Source: Rickettsiales bacterium UBA1997
GTDB taxonomy: Bacteria; Pseudomonadota; Alphaproteobacteria; Rickettsiales; UBA1997
DNA: 64,000 nucleotides
Direction: 5' to 3'
Assembly (NCBI GenBank): GCA_964202895.1
Contig: CAXNJM010000001.1
Location: forward strand, 176,673-240,672
Positions 4,662 to 57,305 of the stretch are shown piece by piece. Position numbers and translations under genes: made by a program. Every line of letters begins with the position of its first letter. Within the stretch, counting starts at the first letter, position 1. The notes under the pieces were generated by a model. The model ran no database searches and was not told where the DNA came from. It saw nothing but the letters and a program-made list of their open reading frames with translations.

Positions 4662-6629
4662 CTATTTTTTATTTAATGATTGCCAAATAAACTCAGAAGT
4701 GAAAGGTAGCATTGGTGCTACTGCTTCACAAATATTAATTAATACTGTATAAAGAACATTATAAGCATTTTGTTTGTCATTATCTATATTTCCTTCTTTT
4801 ATCGACCTCCAAAAGCGATGACGATTTCTTCTTATGTACCAATTATTTAATATTTCAAAAAATCCAATAAATTGATGAGATGCCTCGATTGTATTATATT
4901 TAGCAAGATTTTCATCGATTGTTTTTATCGCAACTTTCATTTTTGCTAAAATATATTTATCAAGAGGGTTTTCAAGATTGAGGCTGTTATATAAGCGATT
5001 TGCTTTTATTTTGTCTGCATTGGCATAAAGACAAAAGAAATTAAAGCTATTGATAAGTGGTTTTATTGCTAAGCGAAACATTTCTTTGACTACTTTGCCA
5101 TCTTTATCAATTCTTAATTCTTGACCCTGCATCACTGGTTGAGATATCAAATAAAATCTCATAGCATCGCTACCAATAGTTGAAAAAATTTCAAGAGGAT
5201 CTGTATAATTTCTTAATCTTTTTGATAATTTTTGCGATTTTTCATCAAGAATTGTTCCGTGACAAATTACATTTTTGAAAGGTGCTTTATCAAATAGAGC
5301 TGTAGACAAAACCATTAAGGTGTAGAACCAACCGCGGGTTTGAGCTAAATATTCAGTGATAAAATCTGCTGGAAAGTTTTTTTCAAATTTTTCTTTATTT
5401 TCAAATGGGTAATGCATTTGTGCAAAAGGCATAGAGCCACTTTCAAACCAGCAATCAAGGACATCGGTAACTCTTATCATTTTTGAACAATCTTGATGTT
5501 CAGGGTGATTAATGTCAGAACGAGGATCGCTTGGATTCAAACGGGAAAGATTGTCGATATAAGGGCGATGAAGATTGTCAATTTTTATACCAAAATCATT
5601 CTCTATTTCTGTGAGACTTCCGTAGACATCGAGTCTTGGATATTTTTTATCAGTGCTTTTCCATACTGGAACTGGACAACCCCAGAAGCGATTTCTAGTA
5701 ATAGACCAATCTCTTGCATTTTCAAGCCATTTACCAAATTGACCTTCTTGCAAATGATTGGGAATCCAGTTTATTCCAGATTCTAATTGAGATAACCAAT
5801 CGGTTTTACTTAGTTCGTAATAACAAGAAGTATATTTTTTATTTAAACTTGCTTTTGGGTAGCCGTTATCTTCTGTTTTGATTAATTTAAAACCGCATTT
5901 ATCAAGCACTTTTTGTGAAGCGATGTTATCAATTACGGTGCAGGCACATATTTCAGTTATTGGCAAATGTTCAAAACAATATCTTGTAAGACTTTTAGTG
6001 ATTTCAGTGGCATAGCCTTTATTCCATGCTGATTTTACAAGTTGATAAGATATCTCTACCTTTCCTTCTTGAAAATTTTCATAACGAGGATGATAAAAAC
6101 AAATTCCTGCTGTGCCAATAAATTCTAGGGTTTTTTTATCTAAAAGAATAAATCTTGGTAAGTTATGTTGTTTAAAATATTCTTGCCAATAAAGTATGTT
6201 TGCAATAGAAGATTCTCTGCTCATGATTGGCTCATCGGAGAAATAGTAGTATTTTCTAACTTCTGGATCGCTATACATTGATGCCAATTCTTCTAAATAT
6301 TCAATTGACATTGGCTTTGCAATTAATCTTTTTGTTTCAAGAGAAACTATCTTTTTTATTGATGTATTATTTTTGTTTGAATCTTCAAAATCAGTCTTAA
6401 GAAAGGTTTTTCCATTATTTAGTTCGACCATTCTTTCTTTGATATTGCTAACTTTAACATACCAAGAGCTAACCGCTTTATAAATTAATGGTGTATCCGT
6501 TCTCCAACAATGAGGATAATTATGAAGATATTGTTCGGTTTTTAGCCAAGAGCCATTAGATTTAAGATACTTTATGATGTCGTCATTTGTTTCAAAAACT
6601 TGACGATTATTCAATGAAATTATTGCCAT
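4662..6629 (-). CDS. Chimeric protein: internal fragment of an isoleucyl-tRNA synthetase (second half of catalytic core, KMSKS loop, start of anticodon-binding domain) with an inserted RimJ/RimL-type GNAT acetyltransferase domain
   Basis: IleRS motifs: 'YPHCWRTDTPLIY', 'INWIP...ARDWSITRNRFWGCPVPVW', 'DCWFESGSMPF', 'QTRGWFYT', 'KLSKRLRNY'. There is no HIGH region or editing domain. Residues ~72-285 carry the GNAT pattern ('LETKRLIAKPMSIEYLEELASMYSDPEVRKYY', 'AWNKGYATE', 'NIASQKVLDKCGF'). Confidence 0.8.
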   Translation of the reverse strand: MAIISLNNRQVFETNDDIIKYLKSNGSWLKTEQYLHNYPHCWRTDTPLIYKAVSSWYVKVSNIKERMVELNNGKTFLKTDFEDSNKNNTSIKKIVSLETKRLIAKPMSIEYLEELASMYSDPEVRKYYYFSDEPIMSRESSIANILYWQEYFKQHNLPRFILLDKKTLEFIGTAGICFYHPRYENFQEGKVEISYQLVKSAWNKGYATEITKSLTRYCFEHLPITEICACTVIDNIASQKVLDKCGFKLIKTEDNGYPKASLNKKYTSCYYELSKTDWLSQLESGINWIPNHLQEGQFGKWLENARDWSITRNRFWGCPVPVWKSTDKKYPRLDVYGSLTEIENDFGIKIDNLHRPYIDNLSRLNPSDPRSDINHPEHQDCSKMIRVTDVLDCWFESGSMPFAQMHYPFENKEKFEKNFPADFITEYLAQTRGWFYTLMVLSTALFDKAPFKNVICHGTILDEKSQKLSKRLRNYTDPLEIFSTIGSDAMRFYLISQPVMQGQELRIDKDGKVVKEMFRLAIKPLINSFNFFCLYANADKIKANRLYNSLNLENPLDKYILAKMKVAIKTIDENLAKYNTIEASHQFIGFFEILNNWYIRRNRHRFWRSIKEGNIDNDKQNAYNVLYTVLINICEAVAPMLPFTSEFIWQSLNKK

Positions 6630-38185: not shown

Positions 38186-38262
38186 TGGTGCCGAATGTCG
38201 GATTCGAACTGACGACCTACTGTTTACAAGACAGTTGCTCTACCGGGCTGAGCTAATTCGGC
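38186..38262 (-). tRNA. tRNA-Thr (anticodon UGU), CCA encoded
   Basis: Minus strand reads GCCGAAT-TA-GCTC-AGCCCGGTA-GAGC-A-ACTGT-CTTGTAA-ACAGT-AGGTC-GTCAG-TTCGAAT-CCGAC-ATTCGGC-ACCA. The acceptor, D and anticodon stems are perfect. The T stem has one A.C mismatch. Confidence 0.9.
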
Positions 38263-49975: not shown

Positions 49976-49991
49976 TTGATGACTTTTTATT

Positions 49992-50441
49992 TTATAAATC
50001 AATGGCAAGGGTTAAGAATTCTTGCTCTTGACTGAATCCAAAAGATTGATATAAATTTTGAGCGGGTTGATTATTTTTTGCTGTTTGTAAAATTATTTTT
50101 GTAATATTTTGAGTTTTTGCAACCTCTAGAGCCTTAACCAGCATTGCTCGACCAATTTTTTTATTTCGATATTTTTCAGCAACATATAAATCATTTAAAA
50201 TATATATTTTTTTTAATCCAACCGAGGAAAAAGATTGATATATTTGCATAAATGCCACAGGATTATTTTCTATCAAACCCAAATAAACTAGAGACTCATT
50301 GTTAATAATTCTTTCTGATAAGAAATCATAACAACCTCTAATATTGGGCTGTTGATTATAAAAAGTTCGATAATCATTAAAAATTAGAGATGCTATATCA
50401 ATATTTTCTAGCTCAGCTCTTATAATTTGTAGCTCTTTCAT
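49992..50441 (-). CDS. GNAT-family N-acetyltransferase
   Basis: 149 aa with the acetyl-CoA motif 'VAEKYRNKKIGRAML' and '...NQPAQNLYQSFGF'. Confidence 0.75.
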   Translation of the reverse strand: MKELQIIRAELENIDIASLIFNDYRTFYNQQPNIRGCYDFLSERIINNESLVYLGLIENNPVAFMQIYQSFSSVGLKKIYILNDLYVAEKYRNKKIGRAMLVKALEVAKTQNITKIILQTAKNNQPAQNLYQSFGFSQEQEFLTLAIDL

Positions 50442-50472
50442 TAAAATTACTATTTTTTGGAAGTTTTCTAAA

Positions 50473-51108
50473 TCATTGCGAAGTCATGCAGAACGAACTC
50501 CAGCTGGGGATATTAAAATTAACTTCAATTTTTTCTGGAATATCACCATCTTGCTTTTGTTGCTTTGTTGATGGAGTCTCCTTAGTTGAGTAGTAATAGA
50601 GCGGTTTTTCAACTAAACAACTCGCCGCCTTTTCAGGTTTTAAGGTTGCATTTTCTGTATCAAAATAATCAGTAAGAAAAGTATCAGGATTTATTTTTTT
50701 ATTATCGCTAGAAGGATCATTGCTATTCAAAGTAAACCTTTTTGTTGTAGCATCGTATGAAGCTGGATAACAGCCTCCTGTTTGAACAAAAATCCTTTTA
50801 TATTCCTCTTGGTTGAAATGCATTTTTATTGTATTTCCACTGCCATCAACATATTCAACAACATACATATTAAACAATTGGTAAATTGATTTAAGGAGAG
50901 ATTGTTGTTGTTGCGGTAGTTGCTGGGAGTTGCTTAGGGAGTTGTTTAGGTATTCTATTTGAGAATTATCTTGTACTTCTTGTTGCGATGGTTGCTGGAA
51001 GCTGTTTAGGTCTTCTATTCGAGAACTATTTTGTGAAGATGGTTCCGATTTTTTTCTGTTATATTCTTCTTGATGAGATGTTTTATTAAATTGAAAATTT
51101 GTTTTCAT
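50473..51108 (-). CDS. Hypothetical protein with a Q/S/N-rich repeated N-terminus
   Basis: 211 aa. Starts 16 nt after the stop of the giant ORF. No family recognised. Confidence 0.5.
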   Translation of the reverse strand: MKTNFQFNKTSHQEEYNRKKSEPSSQNSSRIEDLNSFQQPSQQEVQDNSQIEYLNNSLSNSQQLPQQQQSLLKSIYQLFNMYVVEYVDGSGNTIKMHFNQEEYKRIFVQTGGCYPASYDATTKRFTLNSNDPSSDNKKINPDTFLTDYFDTENATLKPEKAASCLVEKPLYYYSTKETPSTKQQKQDGDIPEKIEVNFNIPSWSSFCMTSQ

Positions 51109-51124
51109 AGTTTTAAATAATTTA

Positions 51125-53920
51125 TTATCTGATATTTTGAATATTTTTATTCAAATCAGTATATTTTGTATTTTTAATATCACATTGTATTGATATCGGT
51201 TGTGATTCTTTATTATTTTGATAAATTTGACAAATTAATTTATTATTACTAATATTATTTAGATAACAAGGATAATCACTTTTCTTAGAAATAATTTCAT
51301 TTTGATTGAATTTTAGTTCCACAACATCAAGTTTTTTATAAATGTCACGTTTATCATCAATATTTGCAAAAGTAATATTAACTTGATCTTTGTTTTTATC
51401 ATTTTCTTTCATATCGCAATAAATTGAAATATTATTATTGATATAAAATATTTTTTTATCATCTCTTTCAAAATAATATAATTCTTCTTTTGCTTTTTTT
51501 ACATCAAAATTTTTATCTAATATCTCAATAACTCCAATAATTTCATCTTTTTCATATATGCGAAGTTGTAAGTCATCGCCTTTTTGATTTTTGTCTTTAT
51601 CAGTCTCTATTCTATATTCACTATTTGCTCTTAGATTAATTAGTTTAGCTTGACGACACAATGAACTAGGCACCTTTTTTTCAATTTGTTGCTTTAAACC
51701 TAAATTTTCTTCTATTTTCCTTAAATCTTTTAAAATATCATCTTTATTACGATTTTTTATTTCCAATAATTTTGTGCAAAAATTTTCTAGCTGATTACTG
51801 ATATCAAATTCTTCATCTCCGACCAAAGAAAGACCATCCATATATTTTTTTGTTAATTCTTTTTTAAAGATATCAATTACTTCATTAGAGAATTTTATGT
51901 TTTTAAGTTCTTTTTCATCAATTTTTTCAAGATATTTGATTACTTTTTCAAGAATATTGGCAGTTACTTTTCTTGCAATTTCAACATTAATAGCATTATT
52001 TTTGTTATCAACAGGCAATTCAAAAAGCTCCAGCAACTGCTCGTCGGCGGTTCTTGCTTGGATTTTTTCTAAATCTTTGCCAAGTTTATCGTAAATATTG
52101 AATTTTAAGTTGTTAAAATGAGTTAGATTATCTCTTGGATCCAACATCTTCAAGTTAAATTCTTGTATTTTTGCACTGAAATAGCCAAGCTCTTTAACAA
52201 TAGATTCTTTCAAGTCTTTATTAGGATCTATTTCTTCATTAAGATCTATTTTTGTTTTTATCGCATCAATCTTTTGATTTATTTCTTCTATATGCTTTTT
52301 TCCCCCCGAGCCAAGACCAAGAAAATTTTTCGAATTATTATATTGATTAACCAGCCCACCAATTTCTTGCAATAAATTGCCGATATTTTTATCTTTATCT
52401 GGGGCATTATCAGCAGTTTTTACAATCTGAAACTGCGAAAGAAGATCAACATATTCCCCTAGTGGAGTATCTTTAATAGATGATTCTGTTAATTTTTGCT
52501 TTAAATCTTCCAAAGCAAGAGGTTGCAAGCCATTTTCGAATTTTCTTATCGATCTTTCCCTATCAAGATTTGTAAGCCCAGATTTATCAATAAATTGCTT
52601 GTTTTTATGAGAAAACCAGGTGTAAAGCGAAGCAACTCGATCAGATTCAGAAGTAGCAACCTTGCCCACTTGCGAATTTTTTATTTCTCTATCATAATTA
52701 AAGCTTTTATGTAAAGTAGTATCAAACATTTGCCCTAACATTGTCTTTACTGGCTCAACAACATTATTATAATTAACAATTTTGTTATATTCAGTATTTT
52801 TAGTGTTATTTTTAACATTTTTAGCAAATATTTTTTCTATTTCCTCTTTTTTATTATCGCCTCTATTAAAATTACTTGCCTTATTGCCAATATTATTATT
52901 AACATATTTATTGATGCCTTTATTAATTCTATTTTCAGAGAAAATTAGCAATGACTCATTAATATATTCTGCTACAGTCAATTCTCTTTTTATATTAGAT
53001 TTAGAAATTAATAAATCTTTATTGAAGCCAATCTCATCATTTATATTTATATCTAATTTTGTATCTAGAATCTTATTTATTATTTCGCTATTAATGCCAT
53101 TTTGCATCATTTTTATTGCATTAATTTTATCATCTAAATCAATTTCAATTTTTTTAATATCATTTACATCCTGCCTCAGATATTCTAGAGGTAAATTAAT
53201 TGATATATTTTTATCGTCATATATTATTAAATCTTGGTATCCAGAAATTTCCCACTGCAATTTATCCAAGGATTCCAATATATTGCTTTGTATAAAATAA
53301 CTATCGAGTAAAGTCTGATTTTCATTATTTATTATTTGAGGAATTTTTTTCTTTAGATATTCAATTTTATTATTGCAATACTCTTTTGACATTATCTTAA
53401 ACAATGCTCGATTTGGCTCCGTCATAAAATCTTTTCCAAATTCTTCAATAAAATTACTATATCTTGCTTTTTGCGAATTAATAAATATTGATAATAGTTT
53501 TTTATTATTTTTTTCATCTTTTGCCATTCCAATTATTTTATTGAAGTCTTGTTTTAGAACATTAATAGATTTAATAATTTTTTCTTTAATATTTTCTGTA
53601 TTTTGTTGTTTTATAGAGAAGAATCTAATAATTTTATTCTGTATTGGCAATTTATCGTTATGATCAATTGCCTTGGCTAAAATCAGCTGTTTTTCTAAAT
53701 TTTTAAGATCATTTTCATTTTTTAAGATATCTTTCTTGGCGTTTTTAATATAGATTTCTATATCAGCTTTTATTATCTTATTATTAGTATTAAATGGATA
53801 TTTTTTCTGAGCAAATAATTTTGAATATTCTTCGCCATTTTTAGCAATATACTGCATCAAAAAATTAAAGTTGGAAATTAATCTATTCCTATCAATATAT
53901 TGCTCTAAATCATTTTCCAA
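51125..53920 (-). CDS. Giant hypothetical N/K/I-rich protein, segment C (frame open upstream to 54109)
   Basis: A 931-aa ORF called from TTG. The same frame continues stop-free to TGA at 54112-54110. No recognisable domain. Confidence 0.6.
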   Translation of the reverse strand: MENDLEQYIDRNRLISNFNFLMQYIAKNGEEYSKLFAQKKYPFNTNNKIIKADIEIYIKNAKKDILKNENDLKNLEKQLILAKAIDHNDKLPIQNKIIRFFSIKQQNTENIKEKIIKSINVLKQDFNKIIGMAKDEKNNKKLLSIFINSQKARYSNFIEEFGKDFMTEPNRALFKIMSKEYCNNKIEYLKKKIPQIINNENQTLLDSYFIQSNILESLDKLQWEISGYQDLIIYDDKNISINLPLEYLRQDVNDIKKIEIDLDDKINAIKMMQNGINSEIINKILDTKLDININDEIGFNKDLLISKSNIKRELTVAEYINESLLIFSENRINKGINKYVNNNIGNKASNFNRGDNKKEEIEKIFAKNVKNNTKNTEYNKIVNYNNVVEPVKTMLGQMFDTTLHKSFNYDREIKNSQVGKVATSESDRVASLYTWFSHKNKQFIDKSGLTNLDRERSIRKFENGLQPLALEDLKQKLTESSIKDTPLGEYVDLLSQFQIVKTADNAPDKDKNIGNLLQEIGGLVNQYNNSKNFLGLGSGGKKHIEEINQKIDAIKTKIDLNEEIDPNKDLKESIVKELGYFSAKIQEFNLKMLDPRDNLTHFNNLKFNIYDKLGKDLEKIQARTADEQLLELFELPVDNKNNAINVEIARKVTANILEKVIKYLEKIDEKELKNIKFSNEVIDIFKKELTKKYMDGLSLVGDEEFDISNQLENFCTKLLEIKNRNKDDILKDLRKIEENLGLKQQIEKKVPSSLCRQAKLINLRANSEYRIETDKDKNQKGDDLQLRIYEKDEIIGVIEILDKNFDVKKAKEELYYFERDDKKIFYINNNISIYCDMKENDKNKDQVNITFANIDDKRDIYKKLDVVELKFNQNEIISKKSDYPCYLNNISNNKLICQIYQNNKESQPISIQCDIKNTKYTDLNKNIQNIR

Positions 53921-54000
53921 AATACCTTTTTCTAATAATTTATCTTTTAAATTAGCAATATTATTTGCAACTTCTCTTTTTTGTTCTTTATTTTTATCAT

Positions 54001-55374
54001 TCAGATAAATCTTATTTTTATAATCTTTGATAATTGCATCATTAATATTTTTTTCTCTTCTGCTAACTTTTTCTTCACCTCCTCTTCTACCCTTCTCTTT
54101 TCCTCTTCCTCAGCCTTTTTCTTTTCTTCCTCGAGTTTCTTTTTTGTCTCTAATTCCACTTTCTTTTTTTCCTCCTCAGTCTTTCTCTTAGCCTCTTCCT
54201 CCTTGGCTCTTTCTTGTTTGAAGTTGTTGATTATGTTGTGGAGATTGGCTTGATTGTTGAGTTGGTTGTTATTGATGGGTTGGATAAGGAGATTATCGAT
54301 GATTGATAATCGTTTGGTGATTAAATCTTGTTGTTGTGGTTTGATTTGTTTTGATTGATTGATTTCTTTGCTAAAATTATTAATGAGGAGATTAGCTTGT
54401 TCTTGTAGTTTGCCTTGGATTTCTTGATTAAATATTAGTTTGAATAATAGTGGATTTTCTGTTTTAAGATGATTAATGATAAGGGAGTAATTGGCGATTT
54501 CACTCAGTGAATCATTAATTTGTTGGTTATTGCCGTTATTAATGATTTGAGTAATAATAGGAGTAATGTGGTTTTGGAATAATTGGCTTTGAGTAAGGAA
54601 GTAGTTGGCAATGAAGAGGTTTTCTGCTATTTGTTTGTTATTTTCTTGTTTATTATCTCCTTGTTTATTATTGATAAAATCATTATGGAAGACGTTGGTA
54701 ATATTATTATATTTGATATTTACTGATTTTTTAATTGGTAGTAATTTTCTGTTCTTTTCAATGGTGATGAGGTTTTTTGCTTCATCGATTTTGGTTATTT
54801 TTGCTTCTTGGTTTTTATATTTATGAAGGAATTTAAAATAACGATTAGCATCTATTTCATTATCGATAACGATGAATTGCGGTGAATTATCTTGATTATT
54901 GGCTTTATAGATGATTTTATTGGCTTTGTTATTACTGATAAAAATGAGATTACTATTAATATTGATTATCTCATTGATTCTTGGCTGTTGGCTGATAGTA
55001 AAAACACCTTTGGCTAATTGTCCGTTTTTAATGCTGAAGTTGTAATTATTGGTAGTTTCTTGATTATTATTACTATAAATGTTATGAGCTGATTTAAATA
55101 ATAAGTTATTACCAACTTTTTGTAAAACAAATTCATCACTTTTAGCGGGGTAATTATCAATATTAGCAAGATTAGCTAGATGATTATATTGATTGAGATA
55201 AGTCTTTTGAAGTAATTTATTAACTTCTTTTTTTATCTTATTAATATCAATCTTATTATTGCTGTTAAATTGTTTAATGATTTCTGCTGTATTAATTGTA
55301 CTAGGTAGTTTTAATATTAATGGCTGTTGATTATTGTTATCAACAATGCCAATTACTTTATTAATTGTAAAATA
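54001..55374 (-). CDS. Giant hypothetical protein, segment B: a 457-codon open frame with no ATG/GTG/TTG start (absent from the ORF track)
   Basis: Hand translation of the minus strand: ...GIVDNNNQQPLILKLPSTINTAEIIKQFNSNNKIDINKIKKEVNKLLQ ... FKQERAKEEEAKRKTEEEKKKVELETKKKLEEEKKKAEEEEKRRVEEEVKKKLAEEKKILMMQLSKIIKIRFI*. It is bounded by TGA (55377-55375) and TGA (54003-54001). An open frame this long is highly unlikely by chance in DNA this AT-rich. Confidence 0.6.
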   Translation of the reverse strand, partial: YFTINKVIGIVDNNNQQPLILKLPSTINTAEIIKQFNSNNKIDINKIKKEVNKLLQKTYLNQYNHLANLANIDNYPAKSDEFVLQKVGNNLLFKSAHNIYSNNNQETTNNYNFSIKNGQLAKGVFTISQQPRINEIININSNLIFISNNKANKIIYKANNQDNSPQFIVIDNEIDANRYFKFLHKYKNQEAKITKIDEAKNLITIEKNRKLLPIKKSVNIKYNNITNVFHNDFINNKQGDNKQENNKQIAENLFIANYFLTQSQLFQNHITPIITQIINNGNNQQINDSLSEIANYSLIINHLKTENPLLFKLIFNQEIQGKLQEQANLLINNFSKEINQSKQIKPQQQDLITKRLSIIDNLLIQPINNNQLNNQANLHNIINNFKQERAKEEEAKRKTEEEKKKVELETKKKLEEEKKKAEEEEKRRVEEEVKKKLAEEKKILMMQLSKIIKIRFI

Positions 55375-56111
55375 TCACCAAGATTCTTTTTATGTATTTG
55401 CTGTTTATGAAGTAGGATATTAGAAGCACTTAGTGATTTATTAATATAGCTTTTCTCATTATAAAATGATACAGGATATTGCTTTTGTTGTTCTTTTTGC
55501 TGTTGTAAGTTAAGCTGTTGATAGGTATCATTATCTCTTTGCCCCATAGAATCGCTGAGAATGTTGTCACCAATTCTAAAGGTTTTATTATGAATATTGC
55601 TTTTATCTAGCTGGCTATGAAAGCTTTTATTATTTAAATCCTGAGCTTTATCATCTTTACTTTTATCTAATTTATCAAATTTAACAAAAAGAGTGAGATT
55701 GCTATTGGAGTTGTTATTAATAGTAACAAAGCCATAATTAGTGAAATTATCATCACGATTAGCAATAATTGAAGTAATAATGCCATTATCTTTCTCCTTG
55801 CTATCGTTAATTTGCAATACCAGCTGGAAGTTAAAACCTAAAGCCTCTTCTTGCCCCGGATAATCATAATTTAAATTATAAGGTAAATTATGATTGTTAT
55901 TTTGATTAGCAATCTCTTCATTACTATCAATTTCTTCTTTGATTATATCTCTTCCTAATTTATCAATATGTCTATCAAGATTACGATTAATATTCTGCTG
56001 ATTACTTATGCCAAATCTAAAATTATCATATTCATTATCAAATGATGATTGATTAAGTAAATTGATGATTGAATCTTGTCCTTGATTTTGTAGATTATTT
56101 TGATTTTTCAT
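55353..56111 (-). CDS. Giant hypothetical protein, segment A (N-terminal 252 aa, N/Q/D-rich)
   Basis: ATG-initiated ORF. Its stop overlaps the beginning of open frame B by 22 nt. Confidence 0.55.
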   Translation of the reverse strand: MKNQNNLQNQGQDSIINLLNQSSFDNEYDNFRFGISNQQNINRNLDRHIDKLGRDIIKEEIDSNEEIANQNNNHNLPYNLNYDYPGQEEALGFNFQLVLQINDSKEKDNGIITSIIANRDDNFTNYGFVTINNNSNSNLTLFVKFDKLDKSKDDKAQDLNNKSFHSQLDKSNIHNKTFRIGDNILSDSMGQRDNDTYQQLNLQQQKEQQKQYPVSFYNEKSYINKSLSASNILLHKQQIHKKNLGDILQLIK

Positions 56112-56321
56112 GGCGATAATATGATTAAGTTAGAATTAAGTTATAATTAATTTGAAGTTAAATTAGAACTAAAAAAGTGAGATTATGAGATAGTCTCATT
56201 ATTTAATAAAATAGAGCTTGGTAAGTAGTGGAAGCCTCAAACTAAAACAGTAAAAATAAAAATCTAGCTTTTTTAAGATAAATTTTTTTGAGATAAAGCT
56301 GAGAATAAATTCCCCTTTCTT

Positions 56322-56369
56322 AAAATAAAAATAGGGGGGGTGGATGCGAAGCAGACCTCGCTCCCCTAT
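56322..56369 (-). terminator. Terminator-like hairpin with a G7/C7 tract (minus-strand orientation)
   Basis: Arms atagggg (56331-56337) / cccctat (56363-56369). On the minus strand the hairpin is followed by TTTTATTTT (complement of 56322-56330). Confidence 0.4.
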
Positions 56370-56420
56370 AAACTATAAAATAAAAAAGAATAATTCAAAA
56401 AATCAAAGCCAATTTCACTT

Positions 56421-56512
56421 GGCAACAAGGGGTTTTAACCCCCCAAGATAATAGGCAACAAGGGGTTTTAACCCCCCAAGATAATAGGCAACAAGGGGTT
56501 TTAACCCCTTGT
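56421..56512. repeat. 33-bp tandem repeat (2 identical units plus one diverged unit), each unit holding a GC-rich palindrome
   Basis: ggcaacaaggggttttaaccccccaagataata at 56421-56453 and 56454-56486 are identical. The third unit (56487-56512) ends in the perfect palindrome caaggggtt-tt-aaccccttg. Confidence 0.9.
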
Positions 56513-56611
56513 CAAGCAATGAAAACAGGCTAATAAGACCTAATACTAAATCCCATCTTTAAAATTTTGAAAAATATTAAAATTCTAACTTCATATTTTT
56601 GGCTAAAAATC

Positions 56612-56644
56612 TCTAAAAAGCCTTAGCTGTATGGATATACAGCT
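56612..56644 (-). terminator. Rho-independent terminator after the purD / 230-aa gene pair
   Basis: An 8-bp stem agctgtat (56625-56632) / atacagct (56637-56644) with loop ggat. On the minus strand it is followed by aaggcTTTTT. It lies about 30 nt downstream of the stop at 56676. Confidence 0.65.
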
Positions 56645-56675
56645 TCATTTTTTAAAGATTTTTATTGTAAAAATG

Positions 56676-57305
56676 TTATTTTGAAAAATTTATTTTATTA
56701 ATTAATTTGTCTCTTAAATCGGGGAATCTAGCCTTTTCACCAAGCCATATCTCCATAAAATCTTTGATTATTAAAGGGTTGTTAATTTTTTCAATAAATT
56801 TTGAATTATGAAAAATTAATAAGTTATTTGAATCGATTTTGAGGGCAATTTTAATGTCTCCTTTTTTAATATCCTGAAAAGTTCTATTAAATGCCAGTTT
56901 ATATTCTAATTTTTGTTGCTGAGTAAGGCTTTTAAATCTTAATATTTCATCAATAGTTTTTTCAACTAAAAATTTTTTACTAAAATTTTGATTATATTTT
57001 ATTGCGATCGCAATTTCTGGATATTCTGCAATTGCAGGGCTTGCCGAACTCTGATTGAAGCGATTTTGTTTATTGAATTCGTTGTTTGAATATAAAAATA
57101 TGTCATAAATTTTTCTTCCAAAAAATTTTAATTCACCTTCTCCAATAAGAATTGAATTTTTTATATATTGATTAGTTGTTTTTTCTACTTCTTGCTTGAC
57201 CTCAGTATAGCTTGCATTTGCATTTATTGATAGAAAAATTACAATAAATGCAACAATCAAAAAGAACAATTTATGAAATATATTTTGTTTATTGATTAAT
57301 TTCAT
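56676..57305 (-). CDS. Exported protein, possibly chalcone-isomerase-like family
   Basis: The called ORF reaches 57368 but overlaps the purD 3' end. The internal ATG at 57305 gives 'MKLINKQNIFHKLFFLIVAFIVIFLSINANA' (a signal peptide). 'GEGELKFFGRKIYDIFLY' resembles the bacterial chalcone-isomerase-like pattern. Confidence 0.45.
   Translation of the reverse strand: MKLINKQNIFHKLFFLIVAFIVIFLSINANASYTEVKQEVEKTTNQYIKNSILIGEGELKFFGRKIYDIFLYSNNEFNKQNRFNQSSASPAIAEYPEIAIAIKYNQNFSKKFLVEKTIDEILRFKSLTQQQKLEYKLAFNRTFQDIKKGDIKIALKIDSNNLLIFHNSKFIEKINNPLIIKDFMEIWLGEKARFPDLRDKLINKINFSK

Follow-up and report, generated by a model that had tools for sequence, protein, structure and literature searches.

A tandem array of probable REP-type palindromic units in a strain-specific islet of a Rickettsiales genome

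In Rickettsiales bacterium UBA1997 (contig CAXNJM010000001.1), the spacer between an operon that includes recA, purD and a chalcone-isomerase-like gene, on one side, and a giant gene, on the other, contains a GC-rich island with 33-bp tandem palindromic repeats. What is this island, and does it regulate the genes around it? (Coordinates refer to the 64,000-nt stretch that we analyzed, which we call the window; the island is at 56322-56512.) A first-pass annotation, made from the letters alone, had offered a small structured RNA, a stacked terminator or attenuator controlling read-through into the giant gene, or a family of short palindromic repeats. We found that the island is a piece of a dispensable flexible islet, not a conserved regulator. 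Its repeats, at 56421-56513, are probably three head-to-tail solo units of the repetitive extragenic palindrome (REP) type, which arrived with the islet or entered it, and whose local effect is incidental. The family to which they belong appears to be uncatalogued and fits neither of the described REP tag superfamilies.

The spacer is 564 nt long (56112-56675). On the minus strand, it follows the stop codon of the chalcone-isomerase-like gene (56676) and precedes the start of the giant gene (56111). As the first-pass annotation had noticed, the island is enriched in G+C (39.8%, versus 24.4% in the remaining spacer). Within the 64 kb, however, 3.3% of the 191-nt windows match or exceed this G+C content, so the island is conspicuous only against non-coding DNA. 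Its repeats form this array:

56421-56453, plus strand: REP-type unit 1, GGCAAC-AAGGGG-TTTTAA-CCCC with a truncated 3' arm, and then the 11-nt linker CCAAGATAATA
56454-56486, plus strand: REP-type unit 2, identical to unit 1, including the linker
56487-56513, plus strand: REP-type unit 3, the complete unit GGCAACAAGGGGTTTTAACCCCTTGTC, with palindrome arms at 56491-56500 and 56503-56512

Tandem Repeats Finder describes 56421-56508 as 2.7 copies with a period of 33 and a 100% match. The score of 176 is the highest for any tandem repeat in the window (every other repeat scores 75 or less). A repeat search extends the third copy to 56487-56519, which is 73% identical to units 1 and 2 over 33 nt, and whose first 22 nt are identical to theirs. 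So, there are two identical units and one diverged unit, just where the first-pass annotation had placed them. The sequence AAGGGGTTTTAACCCC occurs three times in the window, versus 0.05 times expected from shuffles, and each copy in the array holds the palindrome GGGGTT-TT-AACCCC. Unit 3 is a perfect palindrome, as had been reported, but its arms (ACAAGGGGTT and AACCCCTTGT) are 10 nt long, one pair longer than the 9 given before. As minus-strand RNA, the hairpin of unit 3 has a folding energy of -16.2 kcal/mol (z = -4.8). Units 1 and 2 alone fold no better than shuffled sequence (z = -0.76), and their stems are lengthened by G-U pairs on the minus strand only. At 27 nt, unit 3 fits the description of a REP as a short (20-40 nt) imperfect palindrome that can form a stem-loop. 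The array has three direct units and no inverted partner, so it is not a REPIN (an inverted REP doublet that forms a long hairpin).

The same unit is dispersed through other genomes. The oriented unit of the family is [GGCAAC]-AAGGGG-YTTYAR-CCCCTTG, and a 22-27-nt version of it, GGCAAC-AAGGGG-TTTTAA-CCCCTTGTC, is scattered in AT-rich lake metagenome contigs and in metagenome-assembled genomes (MAGs) from lakes. Across 185,579 species genomes, ACAAGGGGTTTTAACCCC matched at least 119 stretches, and several genomes had many copies; among the matches listed, TTG nearly always completes the palindrome. The 22-mer GGCAACAAGGGGTTTTAACCCC, which includes the non-palindromic GGCAAC end, was found in 19 JGI metagenome contigs. 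The Rickettsiales-like ones among these have 30-37% G+C, and the Ga0224506 contigs, where the sequence context is different, have up to 42%. The 22-mer is also present in seven lake MAG loci that are labelled as Rickettsia or Rickettsiales (L014, L042, L057, L064, L070, L085, and L109; we number the loci that we fetched with the prefix L). The 27-mer of unit 3 is identical in L042, L057, and L157. Even the junction from hairpin through linker to hairpin has homologs: AACCCCCAAGGTTAAAGGCAAC in L014 and AACCCCCAATATAAATGGCAAC in L158 correspond to AACCCCCCAAGATAATAGGCAAC in the window.

Several lines of evidence distinguish this family from random palindromes. Read from the GGCAAC end, the loops of 40 units are TTTTAA (28), CTTCAG (7), TTTCAA (4), or CTTTAA (1), and never the reverse complement. 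Because all 40 loops are T-rich in this direction, the units have a polarity. Of 37 distinct units, 6 show covariation (U-A versus C-G) at the pair that closes the loop, and the remaining pairs are invariant. The palindrome runs through the "loop" to a 2-nt core, as columns 13-18 and 14-17 stay complementary. Furthermore, AAGGGG-N6-CCCCTT occurs 157 times in the 1.06 Mb of fetched loci, versus 0-1 times for each of 15 control stems. Judging from the loop polarity and the stem controls, the units in the window and the foreign units are truly homologous. We also built a covariance model (R1) from 35 foreign units, with the window's sequences excluded. R1 scores unit 3 at 47.7 bits (E = 6e-14) and units 1 and 2 at 22.7 bits each (E = 3e-5 for unit 1). 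Apart from these units, R1 reached at most 11.9 bits within the window and at most 13.7 bits across 98.6 kb of DNA from relatives.

The family takes several forms. In the lake contigs, there is about one hairpin per 2 kb over 92 kb, and pairs of inverted units form elements of 80 nt and 128 nt with ends GGCAACAAGGGG...CCCCTTGTTGCC, which resemble REPINs or Rickettsia palindromic elements (RPEs). A copy of 127 nt in L042 lies in-frame within the open reading frame (ORF) of an NPPY methylase. Tandem arrays elsewhere have unit spacings of 32 nt (L014), 41 nt (L031), or 58 nt (L053), versus 33 nt in the window. L085, L150, L153, and L154 have common flanking sequence and differ in their module content. 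Units of either orientation occur, some lie within ORFs, and their contexts are unrelated. A twin architecture, with one TTTTAA hairpin and one CTGAAG hairpin, recurs in several unrelated MAGs. (In the MAG SRP141376_co1_276, at L026, L090, L105, and L112, a 50-nt twin hairpin with TTTTAA and CTGAAG loops is nested in a repeat of about 196 nt that resembles a miniature inverted-repeat transposable element, or MITE, and has inverted ends of its own, GAGGCCGTTGCA...TGCAACGGCCTC; the twin also occurs solo elsewhere in this MAG.)

RayT is a HUH/Y1 transposase that acts on single-stranded DNA, and genes with the corresponding Y1_Tnp domain adjoin the hairpins in L061 (Pfam score of 42.7 bits), L082 (49.9 bits), and L006 (29.6 bits; cut by the contig's end). 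We used a TnpA sequence of IS608 only as a tblastn probe; it had a single weak match, in L082, which Pfam then confirmed. The L082 protein was the probe that found the genes in L061 and L006. In L082, which is from Acidobacteriaceae, the gene is flanked by the related hairpins GGGCTTCAGCCCC and GGCATGGCTTTAGCCGTGCC in inverted orientation, with GGGGTTAAAACCCC units 220-340 nt upstream. In L061, CAAGGGGCTGAAGCCCCTTG and CAAGGGGTTAAAACCCCTTG lie upstream of the gene, and CAAGGGGCTTTAGCCCCTTG, with the opposite loop polarity, lies downstream. Proteins homologous to the one in L061 carry the JGI name "REP element-mobilizing transposase RayT". A profile search gave 3,782 RayT relatives, and the named ones include Anaerolineales, Nostoc, Zixiibacteriota, and Terracidiphilus. 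Five RayT homologs from other samples (L650 and L652-L655), which are 45-76% identical and whose hosts have 46-64% G+C, also have a CAAGGGG-loop-CCCCTTG hairpin upstream and one with the opposite loop polarity downstream. Together with L061, that makes six loci, at four distinct places, where inverted CAAGGGG-loop-CCCCTTG hairpins flank RayT. A homolog in L651, 50% identical, has variant stems. Hairpins with a shared stem around RayT are the canonical REP-RayT arrangement (PMC3337134, PMC3733652). Given the dispersed copies, the REPIN- or RPE-like elements, the recognition by R1, and the stem-sharing hairpins that flank RayT, the last of the three original suggestions, a family of short palindromic repeats, holds up well.

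We looked up exact matches to the purD product, which gave four near-identical contigs from other samples (L001-L004), and we compared them to the window by blastn. Their flanking sequences are 98.9-99.6% identical to the window, and the island segment is absent from all four. L004 lacks 50457-56664, and in L001-L003 about 190 nt replace 49987-56683. Because it is missing from near-identical strains, the island is not a conserved feature of the purD region; rather, it is part of a flexible islet:

50457-56664: strain-specific insertion (flexible islet) of 6,208 bp, comprising the spacer with the island, the giant gene, and a gene for a protein of 211 amino acids
51125-56111, minus strand: giant gene, rich in N, Q, and K, 3' of the island, split over three frames (56111-55353; about 55400-53993, which lacks a start codon; and 53920-51125)

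The junctions of the islet have no inverted or direct repeats, just microhomology of CAA/AA. In seven loci that are 85-90% identical to the window (L163-L169), the same slot, bounded by the chalcone-isomerase-like/GNAT genes and by cimA, is filled with different large genes that are unrelated to the giant gene and have no assigned function. (The slot between the chalcone-isomerase-like gene and cimA, 49987-56683, is hypervariable. Among the 99%-identical contigs, it is empty, or holds a GNAT gene only, or holds the GNAT gene and the 6.2-kb islet; in relatives at 85-90% identity, it is occupied by unrelated genes without known function, of 856 amino acids or of 715 and 860 amino acids.) We also sought other islet-bearing contigs through exact matches to three proteins (those of the 252-aa and 931-aa ORFs and the chalcone-isomerase-like protein of 209 aa), but none of the three was on record.

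By analogy with characterized REP-RayT systems, we propose that RayT would recognize the folded hairpin in single-stranded DNA, cut it, and rejoin it, and would thereby spread the units. The window's units probably derive from REP or REPIN DNA that was mobilized in this way, and they most likely came along with the islet or invaded it. The array then probably grew from two to three units by slippage, because units 1 and 2 are identical even in the linker. On the minus strand, which is the sense strand, the three stem-loops along with two unrelated motifs of a hairpin and a U-run might provide extra terminators or insulators between the purD operon and the giant gene; alternatively, the hairpins might protect the 3' end of the upstream mRNA. 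REPs are mostly found downstream of coding regions (PMC3733652), which agrees with the location in the window.

Several observations weigh against this proposal. The 64-kb window has one cluster only, and 98.6 kb of DNA from relatives has none; with a single cluster, a native and proliferating REP family is not supported in this genome. Nor did tblastn with two RayT probes find any RayT in the 64-kb window. The association with RayT was seen for stem-sharing hairpins in other phyla, not for the GGCAAC subfamily. The head-to-tail order is reported to be rare for REP dimers (PMC3733652), and the unit bears neither the GTAG nor the CGTC tag of the two described REP superfamilies. The palindromic 18-mer has just about 11 free positions, and when we scanned viral contigs with the target stem and with three control stems of 7 bp, each had at least 120 matches. 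(Among the listed matches, 17 of 136 for the target had YTNNAR loops, versus 1-4 of about 120 for the controls, which is a modest excess.) With so few free positions, and with each control stem also reaching at least 120 matches, some of the exact matches across phyla may be convergent hairpins. Also, the units may have been co-opted for a regulatory role. Still, three findings do not follow from how the search was made: the specificity of the stem within the fetched loci (157 versus 0-1), the recurrence of the twin architecture, and the hairpins that flank RayT genes. The first-pass annotation had named a lack of extra copies elsewhere as grounds for giving up its idea. There are indeed none in the sampled DNA of this lineage (the 64-kb window and 98.6 kb from relatives), but there are copies across other genomes.

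The closest comparison is to the REP/REPIN-RayT systems (Nunvar 2010; Bertels & Rainey 2011, PMC3116915, PMC3337134; Ton-Hoang 2012; Messing 2012, PMC3479197). Like the units of those systems, the window's unit combines a short imperfect palindrome with a non-palindromic flank and lies downstream of a coding region; the family elsewhere includes inverted doublets (long hairpins, or REPINs) and tandem clusters; and stem-sharing hairpins flank, in inverted orientation, a Y1_Tnp gene of about 165 amino acids. Unlike those systems, the window has solo head-to-tail units, and the lineage's sampled DNA contains no RayT or further copy. Also, the described REPs are treated as lineage-specific, while here a single stem flanks RayTs that are just 45-76% identical, in hosts with 46-65% G+C. 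The window's unit ends with GGCAAC and GTC, unlike the GTAG superfamily (PMC3733652), and GTAG is found next to AAGGGG only once in 92 kb of lake contigs.

The family is also reminiscent of the CGTC REPs, which include RPE-4 and RPE-6 from Rickettsia (Di Nocera 2013, PMC3733652; Ogata 2000). Both have a stem of 8-9 bp that opens with two A-T pairs, and a 4-nt loop; both are common in genomes of the alphaproteobacterial or Rickettsiales type; and a member of our family lies in-frame in a gene (L042). The family also shares its lake contigs with abundant CGTCATCC repeats (34 in 92 kb of lake contigs, versus 0 in the window and its relatives). However, it lacks a CGTC, TGTC, or CCTC tag and a CCA tail, and neither the lake contigs nor the window has CGTC adjoining AAGGGG. 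RPEs are 100-150 nt long and preserve the reading frame within genes; the 127-nt member in L042 is in-frame, while the copy in the window is intergenic and is not a full element. Finally, CGTC REPs have no dedicated transposase, according to PMC3733652, whereas the stem of this family flanks RayT genes. (L057, L064, L070, L109, and L143-L161, which are lake contigs with the window's unit, are dense with CGTC-tagged palindromes, CGTCATCCTGCGCGAAGTCGCAGGATCC and CGTCATCCCGACGAAAGTCGGGACCCAG. These palindromes fit the CGTC REP / RPE class of PMC3733652, and neither the window nor its relatives have any.)

Bacterial interspersed mosaic elements (BIMEs) of enterobacteria are similar in having clustered palindromic units, short defined linkers, and strain-variable modules at one locus (as in L085, L150, L153, and L154), but the units of BIMEs alternate in orientation, and all three units in the window point one way. 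Like MITEs (such as Correia elements) and the terminator-like elements of the SPRITE type, the family's elements are small and non-autonomous, have terminal inverted repeats, and can supply terminators; in one MAG, a twin hairpin is even nested within a 196-nt MITE. Unlike MITEs, there is no target-site duplication in the flanks of the family's elements (which have inverted ends of 12-25 nt), the copy in the window has one type of end, and the associated enzyme is of the Y1/HUH type, not a DDE transposase.

We also considered that the hairpins might be a functional stack of intrinsic terminators or an insulator, kept to stop read-through from recA-purD into the giant gene or to stabilize the 3' end of the operon. 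Besides the array, the relevant features are:

56322-56369, minus strand: hairpin AUAGGGG...CCCCUAU (56331-56369) around GCGAGG-UCUG-CUUCGC, then UUUUUAUUUU; -15.4 kcal/mol, terminator-like
56397-56423, minus strand: small hairpin GCCAA-GUGAAA-UUGGC (56408-56423), then UUUGAUUUUUU; -6.7 kcal/mol, weak terminator-like site
56615-56644, minus strand: terminator of the recA-purD-chalcone-isomerase-like operon, an 8-bp stem then a U-run; within the insertion, 21 nt from its boundary

Both hairpins in the island had been described in the first-pass annotation: the small one (in DNA, GCCAA-GTGAAA-TTGGC followed by TTTGATTTTTT, and flagged as terminator-like), with its T-run, and the one around the G7/C7 tract. 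We found both of them, and the small one overlaps REP unit 1 by a shared GGC. From the sequence, a hairpin followed by a U-run, as in an intrinsic terminator, is predicted on the minus strand at 56514-56489, 56423-56408, and 56369-56331, so a minus-strand stack of intrinsic terminators is plausible. In 56000-56800, there are four terminator-like sites, versus 0.6 expected, and all of them are usable on the minus strand. RNA from the minus strand of the region folds better than RNA from the plus strand (-76.3 versus -65.4 kcal/mol), and the G-U pairs that lengthen the stems on that strand alone fit this idea as well. REPs elsewhere have been co-opted for termination and mRNA stabilization (PMC3733652, PMC3337134). 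However, an ordinary operon terminator (56625-56644) already precedes the array, units 1 and 2 on their own fold like shuffled sequence, and the entire region is dispensable in 99%-identical strains. A functional stack is compatible with a REP origin and differs solely in claiming selection for function; we think that such selection is unlikely, if less so than the explanations that follow.

A small structured RNA gene, or an attenuator in the 5' leader of the giant gene that works via mutually exclusive pairings of the C7 run, seems quite improbable. The region does fold better than expected on both strands (z = -3.8), but this z-score stems from the repeated palindrome itself. No Rfam model matched the spacer: at the gathering threshold, the sole match in the whole window is a tRNA at 38189; in a permissive search of 56000-56800 (E up to 10), the best match was to an animal miRNA model (E = 0.14); and 19 related loci gave no match. 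ARAGORN found no tRNA or tmRNA within the spacer, and there is no consensus promoter upstream of the island on the minus strand. The non-repeat part of the island matches nothing: the small hairpin and the G7/C7 hairpin have no match in any fetched locus, and only 56420-56515 of the spacer does. A literature search for the 14-mers gave no relevant paper. As for attenuation, the alternative pairing that had been predicted is thermodynamically real, as adding 56300-56321 switches the minimum-energy fold so that the C7 run pairs with the downstream GGGG (56312-56315). But this helix forms only once the U-run has been transcribed; because the alternative pairing is downstream of the U-run, it is not a classical anti-terminator. 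Furthermore, the 931-aa ORF of the giant gene has a single homolog (41% identity, locus L162), and the 2.2 kb of L162, which includes 332 nt upstream of the homolog, has no such hairpins. Neither an RNA gene nor an attenuator fits with the segment's absence from near-identical strains, or with a family whose units have no fixed orientation or context and can lie within ORFs.

Could the array instead bind a protein as duplex DNA, as an operator, an iteron, or a centromere-like site? The 33-bp spacing is about three helical turns and would align the three GGGGTT-N2-AACCCC sites on one face of the helix. Complementarity that continues to the 2-nt core is also what a dimer's binding site would show, and AT-rich DNA with repeats of 11 bp and 15 bp surrounds the array. 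But in other arrays of the family the spacing varies (32, 41, or 58 nt), which weakens this idea. Searches against Pfam, NCBIfam, PHROG, and PADLOC families found no replication, partition, or regulator gene in the islet, and BLAST of the array against plasmids and phages gave no match. We consider this explanation very improbable.

A type III toxin-antitoxin system with a repeat-RNA antitoxin, or a degenerate CRISPR-like array, would account for the layout, in which direct repeats of about 33 nt stand in tandem ahead of a terminator-like hairpin, but it is scarcely credible. There is no toxin ORF, as the stretch from the array to the giant gene (56112-56420) has no ORF of at least 40 amino acids, and no toxin family in PADLOC or Pfam matches the proteins encoded downstream. 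Nor is the array a CRISPR, since its 11-nt "spacers" do not differ.

For the locus itself, the result is deflationary: it is most likely selfish repeat DNA plus terminator-like hairpins in a dispensable islet. Labels such as riboswitch, small RNA, or attenuator are out of place in an annotation of the island; instead, it marks a recombination-prone slot, from the chalcone-isomerase-like gene to cimA, with large genes that vary between strains. More tentatively, the unit might represent an uncatalogued REP-RayT lineage that crosses phyla, whose stem, CAAGGGG-YTNNAR-CCCCTTG, is near-constant while RayT diverges to 45% identity, and which is repeatedly found in-frame in methylases of the MmeI/Eco57I type. 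In that case, the cluster in the window, in a strain-specific islet of an otherwise REP-free, streamlined genome, would be a footprint of such units moving horizontally, in contrast to the prevailing view of REPIN-RayT systems as lineage-specific and vertically inherited. If conservation across phyla holds, it would bear on whether REP-RayT systems move horizontally and on how elements enter reading frames. The oriented unit, the model R1, and the flanking RayT clade together provide a searchable signature for a REP family outside both tag superfamilies.

The giant gene has oddities of its own. Its frame changes near 55360-55395, by a T4 run, and at 54046-54052, at an A7 run (gaagagaaaaaaatatt). 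Its middle ORF, of 457 codons, has no ATG, GTG, or TTG start, and the NCBI record annotates only the last 931 amino acids as a protein. The broken gene could be a pseudogene, a sequencing error, or a case of programmed slippage. The ATG at 56111 is not preceded by a Shine-Dalgarno-like sequence; directly 5' of it, at 56124-56172, is an 11-bp tandem repeat, ATTAAGTTAGA, with 4.5 copies. Inside the gene, a repeat with a 24-nt period (3.5 copies, 54050-54132) encodes an E/K-rich stretch. Neither the ORFs of the giant gene nor the 211-aa gene belongs to any Pfam, NCBIfam, PHROG, or PADLOC family. The gene content of the window is that of a free-living cell (a TonB receptor, an RND pump, purD, and citramalate synthase).

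In Acidobacteriaceae, a dispersed element of about 110 nt, TTGTATCAGGGCACGACTTCAGTCGTGCC...ACAAGGGGTTTTAACCCCTGAGGGA...CATTTATGAAACACGCT, is found in L005, L016, L022, L033, L116, and about 20 other loci. It is conserved across many MAGs, with several copies per MAG, and it starts no conserved ORF. We had considered that the conserved ATGAAACACGCT after the Acidobacteriaceae hairpins might be the start of a transposase ORF, but the downstream ORFs are short and unrelated, so we rejected this.

Two insertions in methylase genes are similar to each other. In L656 (Anaerolineales, JALHTO010000037), 1501-2325 contains RayT and one REP unit (encoding NKGFKPLV) in-frame in a methylase of the MmeI/Eco57I type, just before GGFDAVIGNPPY. 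In L042 (lake MAG contig CAMAYG010000005), a similar methylase carries the 127-nt REPIN, which belongs to the window's subfamily, at 700-850; the REPIN is in-frame and lies just ahead of KGFDVVVGNPPY. Thus, one linker between methylase motifs was hit in two phyla. The common loop CTGAAG matches the recognition site of Eco57I/AcuI in REBASE, which may be a coincidence. Downstream of the RayT gene of L082, at 6100-6500, the last 13 codons of the gene and the two flanking hairpins form a tandem repeat of four or more copies (period, about 101 nt).

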